Part shown: in pieces, positions 1-3,000 of the stretch
Position numbering within the stretch: the stretch's first letter is position 1
How the letters are laid out: each line of letters starts with the position of its first letter
Assembly: GCF_056712565.1 (NCBI RefSeq)
Contig: NZ_CM160072.1
Reading direction: 5' to 3' (one strand)
Length of the DNA stretch: 64,000 nt
Position numbers: made by a program

Positions 1-3000
1 ATCCATGATCCCTTTAGTTTTCACGACGGCGTTTATTTATTACCAGGGTAAAGAGTTGGGGTTGGCTGCTGCGGTAGTCAGTGCGCTGGCCTCACTGTCA
101 CCGACGCTAGAGCCAACTCTGGGGGGCTGGATCACTGATAACCTCGACTGGCGATGGCTATTTTATATCAATATATTACCGGGCATATATTTAGTTTTGA
201 GTATTCCTTTTCTGGTTAATTTTGATAAACCTGATCTCTCTTTACTGAAAGTTGCTGATTATCCGAGTATTATCCTGTTGGCCATGACACTGGGATGTCT
301 GGAATATACCCTTGAAGAAGGAGCGCGCTGGGGATGGCTGGATGATAATACTATTTTGCTGACATCAGTTCTGGCATTGGTGAGTTTTATTTTATTTGCT
401 GCGCGTACACTTAAAATATCCAATCCGATAATGGATCTTCATGCTTTTAAGGATAAATATTTCACACTGGGATGTTTCTTTTCTTTTTCTGGAGGGGTTG
501 GAATATTCTCTACTGTATATTTAATACCTGTGTTTTTGGGGCAGGTTCGCGGATTAAATGCCGAAGAGATAGGTTTTGCCGTTTGCACAACAGGTATTTT
601 CCAGTTATTTTCTGTTCCCTTTTACTTCTGGTTAAGTAAAAAAATAAATCTGCAATGGCTGTTGATGGCGGGGCTGGGCGGATTTGTGTTTTCAATGTAT
701 CTTTTTACCCCTATAACCCACGAATGGGGATGGCAGGAGTTACTGTTTCCACAGGCAATTAGAGGGATTTCGCAGCAGTTTGCGATGGCCCCCATCGTAA
801 CATTAACGCTGGGGGGAATTCCAAAAGAACGGCTGAAGTTAGCCTCTGGTGTATTTAATTTAACACGTAATCTTGGGGGCGCAAGTGGTATTGCCCTGTG
901 TGGCTCTATTCTCAATAATCGAACTAATTTTCATTTTTCGAGAATGGGTGAAAAAATGGTTTCTGTTCCCCATACGATGAATGACTTCATTTCCAGAAGT
1001 GCTTTGTTTTTTAATCGCAGTGGAAGTGACCAGACATCGGAAATACTGGCTTCAACCAAATTATTGAGTCAATTGATGCTGAGGGAGGCGCAAACTATGG
1101 CATTTTCGGATACCTTTCTGCTAATCAGTGGTCTGTTATTTATCGCATTTTTGTTGGTTCCTGCTATGAATAAATCATCCTGATCGGAGCCTGTGCTGAA
1201 TTAAACTCGGGCTAAACTGTTCGATACTGCTAACAGGCTAGTATAAAATGCCCCGCCTGCGCAGATACTCACAGGTATGAAGTAGAGTATTGTTTCAATC
1301 TGTGAAGGGAACGATGCAGTAAGTATGAACAATTAACCCGTCTGAATCACGACGTGTGAAGGTGCATAGGAGGTTACATGAACCTTGACGACAAATCGCT
1401 GTTTCTTGACGCCATGGAAGATGTCCAGCCGCTGAAACGTGCTACAGATGTCCACTGGCATCCAACGCGTAACCAACGTGCGCCGCAGCGTATCGACACG
1501 CTGCAACTTGATAATTTCCTCACCACTGGATTTCTCGACATCATCCCGCTAAGTCAGCCGCTGGAGTTTCGGCGGGAAGGTTTGCAACATGGGGTGCTGG
1601 ATAAGCTGCGCAGTGGTAAATATCCGCAACAGGCGAGCCTGAATCTTTTGCGCCAGCCGGTGGAAGAGTGCCGCAAAATGATGTTCAGTTTCATTCAACA
1701 AGCCCTGGCGGATGGTTTGCGTAACGTCCTGATTATTCATGGCAAAGGACGGGATGATAAATCGCATGCCAATATTGTCCGCAGCTATGTGGCGCGCTGG
1801 CTGACCGAATTTGATGATGTTCAGGCATATTGCACCGCGCTACCGCATCATGGCGGCAGCGGGGCGTGTTACGTCGCACTACGTAAAACAGCGCAGGCGA
1901 AGCAAGAAAACTGGGAGCGCCACGCTAAGCGCAGTCGTTGATCACGAGACGCATCCGTGGCTTATGCCGCCAGCACGCGGTTGCGTCCATCATTTTTCGC
2001 TCGATACAAAGCATCATCAACGCGTTTAAACAGTTCATCGATGCTTTCATTTCCTTCGTGATGCGCCACACCAATGCTGACAGTAAAGCGTGGTAAGCTC
2101 GAAATACTCACTTTTGCCACGCTTACGCGGATAGTTTCAGCCAGCGAAAGCGCGGTATCCAGTGGGGTTCTTGGTAGCAATAAGACAAACTCTTCGCCTC
2201 CCCAACGAAACACCAAATCGCCTTTGCGAGCGCAACTTTCGAGAGTGCGGGCAAGGGCGCATAACACCTCATCACCTTTAGAATGCCCATAGAGATCGTT
2301 AATGTGTTTAAAACGATCGGTGTCGATGAGCAACAAGCTGTAATCCTGAGCGATGGCGAGGTGCTGCATTTGGCCTGGCTCGGTAATGTGATAAAACTGT
2401 CGCCGATTCAGTAATCCTGTCATCGCATCATGGTGGGCAGCATGTTCCAGCTGCTCCTCCAGCCGTTTTTGCTCAGTAATATCATGCACAATACATAACA
2501 TGAGCTTGTCACCATAAATTTCAATCGGCCCGGCATAGGTCTGCACATGACGAGTCGAACCATCCGCCAGTTTATGAACAAAATTCAAAGGTTTATGACC
2601 ACCGGGTAAATGCGAGATTTCATGCATGATAGGCATGACGCGACGCCCGAGCATATTAATTTCCCAGGTATGTTTCTGGCACATCGTTTCATGGTTATAA
2701 CCATAGAAATTGAGCGCGGCGAGGTTAGCATCGACGATTTGGCCATCTCGTGAGGGGTCAATCAACAACATTGGTGCAGAGTTAGTCAGAAAAAAGCGCG
2801 CATAAAAACCTTGTTTTTTGCGCTGATAATTTGCCGAGCGACTGGCTTTTAAACCCAGCGTTGCCGGCGCTTCGATACCTTCGAAAATAATCACCGGTTC
2901 TGCTTCTGTCAGCTTTCGCAAAACAAGTCGACAGCTCAATGCTGTTTCCTCTTCTTTACGCTGAACGGTGAGTATTTCGATAATATCGTGTTGATTTTGC

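Follow-up and report, generated by a model that had tools for sequence, protein, structure and literature searches.

A three-gene accessory efflux module between mcaS and smrA as a widespread presence/absence polymorphism in Escherichia coli

Introduction

Among described systems, EmrAB-TolC of Escherichia coli K-12 is the closest to the efflux genes considered here. Its adaptor gene likewise lies directly upstream of the gene for an MFS permease of the DHA2 (14-TMS) family, and the module described below further resembles it in having no local gene for an outer-membrane component. However, identity between the two systems is just 29% for the permease and 31% for the adaptor, and the module misses both EmrAB equivalog cutoffs (207 vs 925 bits for EmrB and 206 vs 563 bits for EmrA). 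Moreover, the adaptor of the module has 343 aa, compared with 390 aa in EmrA, its regulator is a divergently transcribed AraC/cupin protein, whereas that of EmrAB is the MarR-type MprA (MprA/EmrR), and its locus differs from the EmrAB locus and varies by strain.

Orthologous modules are found in Kluyvera, Citrobacter, Hafnia, Pluralibacter, and Salmonella enterica subsp. salamae, where the three genes are arranged and oriented as in E. coli, with permeases 81–83% and a regulator 79% identical to those of E. coli, and where the overlap between adaptor stop and permease start is kept. The chromosomal surroundings of these modules are unrelated, and they never lie beside smrA. The module is a self-contained accessory unit. 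The regulator of these genera has 262 aa, whereas that of E. coli has an 11-residue C-terminal extension that runs into DNA on the McaS side.

At the site of interest, the gene order of K-12 is ogt, abgT, abgB, abgA, abgR, mcaS, smrA, with no MFS gene, and 227 nt separate the end of mcaS from the start of smrA, its divergent neighbour. McaS is a regulator of biofilm formation and motility. Strains that carry the module have the same flanks as K-12 (ogt and fnr on the left; smrA, dgcM, zntB, FnrS, and dbpA on the right) and keep McaS together with its upstream region, including a conserved GTGACAGATTTCAC element. They differ from K-12 in having 3.6 kb of module DNA, which separates mcaS from smrA, in place of a 111-nt spacer, in that mcaS and smrA have ceased to be divergent neighbours, and in a module-linked McaS allele that departs from that of K-12 in the 5' stem-loop. 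Full-text searches of the literature returned no paper on this module.

The Permease Gene at the Left Edge of the Window

The window, that is, the whole 64-kb stretch of DNA analysed here, opens inside a gene. A frame on the + strand is open from position 2 to a TGA stop at 1181–1183 (it is listed as ORF 5–1183), and the DNA to the left of it was read in strain S88, which served as the reference (locus L001; window position = L001 position − 15000). In S88, the full ORF comprises 504 codons, begins with an ATG at L001 14669, and spans L001 14669–16183; therefore, the window holds residues 112–504 and the stop codon (2–1183, + strand), the 3' 78% of a gene for a DHA2-family MFS efflux permease, as judged from the ORF list and from identity to S88. 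The window edge cuts off the first 332 nt of the permease gene, and the genes for the adaptor and the regulator fall to its left; farther upstream in S88 comes an intact McaS. Identity over window 1–1400 is 100% in S88, APEC O1, ATCC 11775, several ST95-like isolates, and others among the complete E. coli genomes.

By homology, the permease is placed in the DHA2 family. Against TIGR00711 (DHA2 family efflux MFS permease, EmrB/QacA-type), the 504-aa protein scores 392.4 bits, the cutoff being 230.2, in a single stretch that pairs residues 9–496 with profile positions 3–480 of 485, and it also matches Pfam MFS_1 (133.5 bits). In addition, its alignment with 505-aa orthologues is gapless up to and including the last transmembrane or C-terminal hydrophobic segment, and fourteen transmembrane segments may be assigned to it from this end-to-end alignment to the family profile and the orthologues only. 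The closest solved structure is that of EmrB. The first-pass annotation had read the ORF as an EmrB-like MFS gene, cut to its 3' portion and lying on the smrA strand, which is borne out, with the word "EmrB-like" valid at the family level only because of the low identity to K-12 EmrB and a score far under the cutoff of the profile for EmrB proper (NCBIfam NF000391; 206.8 bits vs a cutoff of 925).

The Efflux Module Upstream of the Window

In S88, APEC O1, and ATCC 11775, the gene order is ogt, an abgT remnant, an abgR remnant, McaS, an AraC-family regulator, an HlyD-family adaptor, the MFS permease, and smrA. The partner gene that adjoins the permease in the same operon, seen in S88 outside the window, runs rightwards (L001 13641/13644–14672) and encodes an HlyD/EmrA-type periplasmic adaptor, recognised from the S88 ORF and from domain scans that gave EmrA/EmrK-type, HlyD, and biotin-lipoyl matches. 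Its stop codon and the permease start codon overlap as ATGA. Although its match covers the whole profile of the EmrA/EmrK adaptor subfamily, TIGR00998, the score of 266.6 bits is below the cutoff of 390.8; on these scores, the adaptor is classed as an HlyD-family protein related to EmrA yet outside that subfamily. The third gene, divergent and upstream of the adaptor gene, is transcribed leftwards and encodes a 271-aa AraC/cupin-family regulator with cupin and HTH_18 domains. In genomes identical to the window, the ORFs of regulator, adaptor, and permease are all intact.

By analogy with EmrAB, the adaptor and the permease would form a proton-driven exporter of small molecules. This exporter would use TolC, as EmrAB does, since the module contains no outer-membrane factor gene, and family knowledge suggests that the divergently transcribed AraC-type protein would regulate it upon sensing a ligand. 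Taken as a whole, the data are best explained, with high confidence, by a window that begins in the permease gene, the last of three in an accessory efflux module that was inserted between mcaS and smrA.

McaS, the abg Genes, and the Spacer before smrA

The first-pass annotation had reported McaS as absent from 1184–1377, and this proves correct: Rfam RF00115 (McaS/IsrA) gave no match at E ≤ 1 in window 1–6000, which includes this spacer, and none at the gathering score in the whole window. The reason is that McaS precedes the module and falls beyond the left edge of the window. S88 has a full-length RF00115 match on the − strand at L001 12566–12661 (112.8 bits), some 3.7 kb upstream of smrA and 2.3–2.4 kb to the left of window position 1. 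McaS is thus displaced, not lost, and is intact in all genome types matching the window. The K-12 McaS segment is still matched in all 1455 module-carrying genomes; a K-12-type mcaS–smrA junction is complete in 3829 genomes, and its McaS half alone is matched in exactly those 1455, at 80–90% identity.

The abg genes have a history of their own. S88 retains the 3' 132 nt of abgT and the 3' 196 nt of abgR as remnants of a deletion of about 5 kb, the junction of which was found in 1051 genomes, and in EC21Z-144 abgA–abgR are intact alongside the module. The loss of abg is an event separate from the module, and abgR was not replaced by the MFS gene. Thus, the claim that an MFS gene stands where K-12 has abgR and McaS is right as to position and needs amending otherwise, since McaS is intact to the left of the module and abgR was lost by a separate deletion. 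The broader statement that the gene content of the left flank differs from that of K-12, where abgR, mcaS, and smrA follow one another, stands.

Pairwise BLAST aligns K-12 positions 9432–9858 (locus L002) with S88 L001 12342–12767, and K-12 positions 9970–10060 with S88 L001 16368–16458 at 96.7% identity; between the two blocks lie 111 nt in K-12 vs 3600 nt in S88. Homology to K-12 therefore resumes at window position 1368, leaving ten bases up to the start codon of smrA. The 194-nt spacer from the permease stop to the smrA start (1184–1377) accordingly has two parts, namely 1184–1367, which is specific to the module haplotype and has no K-12 counterpart, the 111 nt of K-12 being unrelated to it, and 1368–1377 (+ strand), where the K-12 vs S88 alignment resumes and which includes the GGAGG ribosome-binding site of smrA. 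The first of these parts is 76% conserved in E. whittamii and E. albertii, both of which bear module deletion scars. The spacer has no Rfam match, and a fold z-score of −0.81, which is unremarkable, gives no sign of a structured RNA. The sole promoter-like site in it is a weak sigma-70 candidate at 1221–1249. As no terminator-like site was found on the + strand of the spacer, read-through from the pump operon into smrA could occur. The smrA gene itself (1378–1941, + strand), identified by its ORF and by RefSeq annotation in S88 and K-12, encodes the DNA endonuclease SmrA and is the conserved right-hand neighbour, beyond which follow dgcM on the opposite strand, zntB, the FnrS sRNA (4528–4645), and dbpA.

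The Permease Allele of the Window

Two codons of the permease in the window depart from an alignment of 108 full-length homologues. At 110–112 (+ strand), Glu148 (GAG) takes the place of the Gly of the "GP" dipeptide in LGPTLGG; this position is Gly in 108/108 homologues and in the other E. coli alleles, and it aligns with the G of "CGPILGG" in EmrB. At 884–886 (+ strand), Ser406 (AGT) replaces the Ile of NLGGAIG, which is likewise invariant (108/108). The exact 60-mer with GAG occurs in 75 of 1316 genomes and that with AGT in 158 of 1445. The E148 allele is a minority allele of a sublineage. G-P-x-x-G-G is the conserved antiporter motif in the fifth transmembrane segment of drug/H+ antiporters, where a Glu is likely to be damaging, and the window allele breaks it, reading LEPTLGG.

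The pump in the sublineage of the window may consequently be impaired by G148E, which puts a charged residue into the GP motif, and by I406S, although the frame is open. Whether such a pump would already be inactive and decaying, a relic and not a working transporter, is a question on which we would give even odds. Both substitutions fall on sites invariant among the homologues, one of them in an allele of limited spread, and other lineages show frank decay of the module: in NC101, the regulator is frameshifted and an internal deletion fuses remnants of the adaptor and the permease; in AVS0968, IS1 replaces both of these genes; in AVS0972, IS1 lies inside the stretch corresponding to window 1–1400; and truncated permease copies, with a C-terminal frameshift, are also recorded from Shigella flexneri. 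Nevertheless, the lineage of the window has neither stop nor frameshift in the permease, its adaptor and regulator are intact, the effects of the missense changes are predictions from conservation, and about 1240 of the 1316 carriers keep G148.

Which Arrangement Came First

In a scan of smrA starts that took one genome per species, most Enterobacteriaceae have fnr, ogt, (McaS), and smrA without the module, and in Klebsiella pneumoniae the site is occupied by the abg operon. Within Escherichia, E. whittamii and Escherichia sp. E1V33 are devoid of the module and have kept both its ends. On the left, their homology to S88 extends to L001 12865 and comprises the last 29–32 codons of the regulator with an in-frame stop; on the right, it begins at L001 16146–16154 and comprises the last 10 or so permease codons and the entire downstream spacer. 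E. albertii has shorter module stubs with different end points. Since these scars end at different points, the module must have been deleted at least twice in Escherichia, and it is old there.

Such repeated deletion, in E. whittamii and E1V33 on one side and in E. albertii on the other, would fit a history in which the ancestor of Escherichia already had the module here and the K-12-type strains lost it by deletion, so that the window would represent the original state and K-12 the derived one; K-12 moreover shares 36 nt with the end of the E. coli regulator ORF. We regard this history as possible but rather unlikely. The 36 shared nt are the 11-codon extension and the stop codon, which are absent from the regulators of other genera and can therefore be native DNA that the ORF reads into, and their value as proof of a loss in K-12 is weakened by the E. 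coli regulator being 11 residues longer than its orthologues. The 111-nt spacer of K-12 is unlike the module, with no similarity to any part of it at word size 7, but it is collinear with the region upstream of smrA in Citrobacter, where 67 nt lying equally far from the start codon match at 69% identity (E = 7e-6 in a search of this small size). The order ogt, (McaS), smrA, free of the module, in most Enterobacteriaceae also speaks against it.

The arrangement without the module, as in K-12, is favoured as the empty site because of this collinearity with Citrobacter and because the homology between K-12 and S88 ends exactly at the codon where the regulators of other genera stop and beyond which that of E. 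coli reads 11 codons on. With the K-12 type as the original empty site, the module and 184 nt of its own downstream DNA would have replaced 111 nt of the ancestral mcaS–smrA spacer. A difficulty for this preference is that the scars in E. albertii, as read from the alignments, place the insertion before the split of E. coli and E. albertii; with an insertion of that age, either a long-standing polymorphism or recombination would be required to explain why most E. coli have the empty site.

A farther-reaching proposal holds that the module-bearing and module-free types are two old haplotypes that persist side by side in Escherichia, each with its own McaS allele, and that presence of the module rewires the expression of McaS and smrA in B2-type strains; we consider it improbable. 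The carriers include the phylogroup B2 strains S88, APEC O1, IHE3034, NC101, and ST131. The AraC-type gene of carriers points towards the McaS promoter, and smrA follows the pump operon without a recognisable terminator in between. If this proposal were true, the module would alter McaS and smrA expression in B2-type strains, beyond the added pump.

The Frameshift Label in RefSeq

RefSeq/PGAP calls the permease "frameshifted" in every genome opened (S88, EC21Z-144, STEC299, ATCC 11775, and NC101), with a feature of 1456 nt that ends at window position 1124. Taken at face value, the label and the length of the feature would make the permease a frameshifted pseudogene, which is very improbable. 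The gene is a single ORF of 504 codons, the TIGR00711 match runs through its full length in one stretch, and the orthologues of 505 aa align to it without a gap through the last transmembrane segment. Moreover, translation of all three frames revealed that the frame of the ORF alone is open near the 3' end, which argues against a true frameshift in the permease.

The tail and the length of the RefSeq feature can instead be accounted for by a truncated reference. In the protein set of the permease, the S. flexneri entries have 484 and 488 aa and both end in "...AFSVPFC"; the latter, WP_162471458.1, is the sole WP_ accession listed for the permease. Removal of the A at window position 1110 yields the "AFSVPFC" tail followed by a TAA at 1122–1124, and 484 codons, a stop, and one extra E. 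coli base amount to exactly 1456 nt. Because tail, stop, and length all match the S. flexneri form, the label is best explained, from these matching coordinates, as an annotation artefact that arises from alignment to a truncated S. flexneri reference protein.

Distribution and Meaning of the Polymorphism

BLAST of window 1–1400 against complete E. coli genomes gave matches in 1455 of 5426 (about 27%), with coverage of at least 80% of the query in 1320 of them, and K-12 is without the permease. The idea that the smrA junction arose through misassembly, or through a mobile element that recently inserted in a single strain, has practically no chance and is refuted, as the same junction recurs at 95–100% identity in these 1320 independent complete genomes and the flanks of the module in S88 contain neither transposase nor integrase nor repeat.

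The feature is, therefore, a widespread and already annotated presence/absence polymorphism of an accessory EmrAB-type efflux module, ordinary accessory-genome variation that is already known, and it carries little weight beyond bookkeeping. For annotation, the label of "frameshifted pseudogene" keeps an intact accessory efflux gene out of sight in surveys of pangenomes and resistomes. As regards the strain of the window, it is of a B2/ExPEC-like type, its McaS is to be sought to the left of the window and not declared missing, and, as judged from conservation, its permease allele carries a probable loss-of-function substitution.

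Annotation of the Permease Gene

The DHA2-family MFS permease gene has an intact ORF in the window (2-1183), despite being labelled 'frameshifted' by RefSeq/PGAP, as it is in all of the E. coli genomes checked. The RefSeq permease feature is 1456 nt long and ends at window 1124, and the permease proteins of Shigella flexneri are truncated forms of 484/488 aa with the C-terminal end AFSVPFC. Both the length and the end point of the feature fit an alignment against these truncated proteins, and the AFSVPFC-ending form would result from the loss of the A at window 1110. Two of about 1450 matches to the permease region are on records labelled plasmid.

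Decay and Loss of the Module

The module, formed by the genes for an AraC-family regulator, an HlyD-family adaptor, and the permease, is decaying in some of its carriers, among them NC101, AVS0968, and AVS0972. In NC101 (L044 2837-4367), the regulator gene is frameshifted and an internal deletion spans adaptor and permease, with the permease remnant picking up again at window 758, while IS1 stands in place of adaptor and permease in AVS0968 (L015 4345-5948) and lies inside the stretch matching window 1-1400 in AVS0972 (hit H70). Other Escherichia species lack the module and keep both of its ends as scars, as found in E. whittamii (L029 9652-9747), Escherichia sp. E1V33 (L028 about 13869-13955), and E. 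albertii (L016). What is left is the 3' end of the regulator gene, which contains an in-frame stop, the 3' end of the permease gene, and the spacer that follows it; the end points of the deletion vary among the species.

Other Features of the Window

The sRNAs expected in this part of the chromosome are present as Rfam gathering-score matches: FnrS (4528-4645, + strand), MicC (11607-11727, + strand), and RydC (44587-44650, - strand). The Rac prophage of K-12 lies past ttcA. At this place the annotation of S88, which is identical to the window over 1-1400, lists nothing more than an integrase that is truncated and part of a DUF1627 gene (window about 7399-7757; L001 22399-22757), and the prophage appears to be absent or cut down to remnants in the S88/window strain type.

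Divergence and Recombination at the mcaS Flank

The abgT and abgR remnants of S88 (L001 12211-12558) and the McaS flank share, in the window's lineage, only ~81-91% identity with K-12 and with EC21Z-144, an E. coli strain with intact abgA and abgR plus the module, whereas the neighbouring genes are far less diverged (96.7% on the smrA side); this divergence would exceed what pseudogene decay alone would account for. The module-linked McaS allele (S88, L001 12566-12661) also differs from that of K-12 in the 5' stem-loop, which reads ACCGGUCACCAGGACCCCAGGCCGG instead of ACCGGCGCAGAGGAGACAAUGCCGG. The sequence of EC21Z-144 is mosaic: it resembles K-12 on the left side of mid-McaS and S88 on the right side (L003 around 2560-2660), which suggests a recombination breakpoint within the McaS sRNA gene in this strain.
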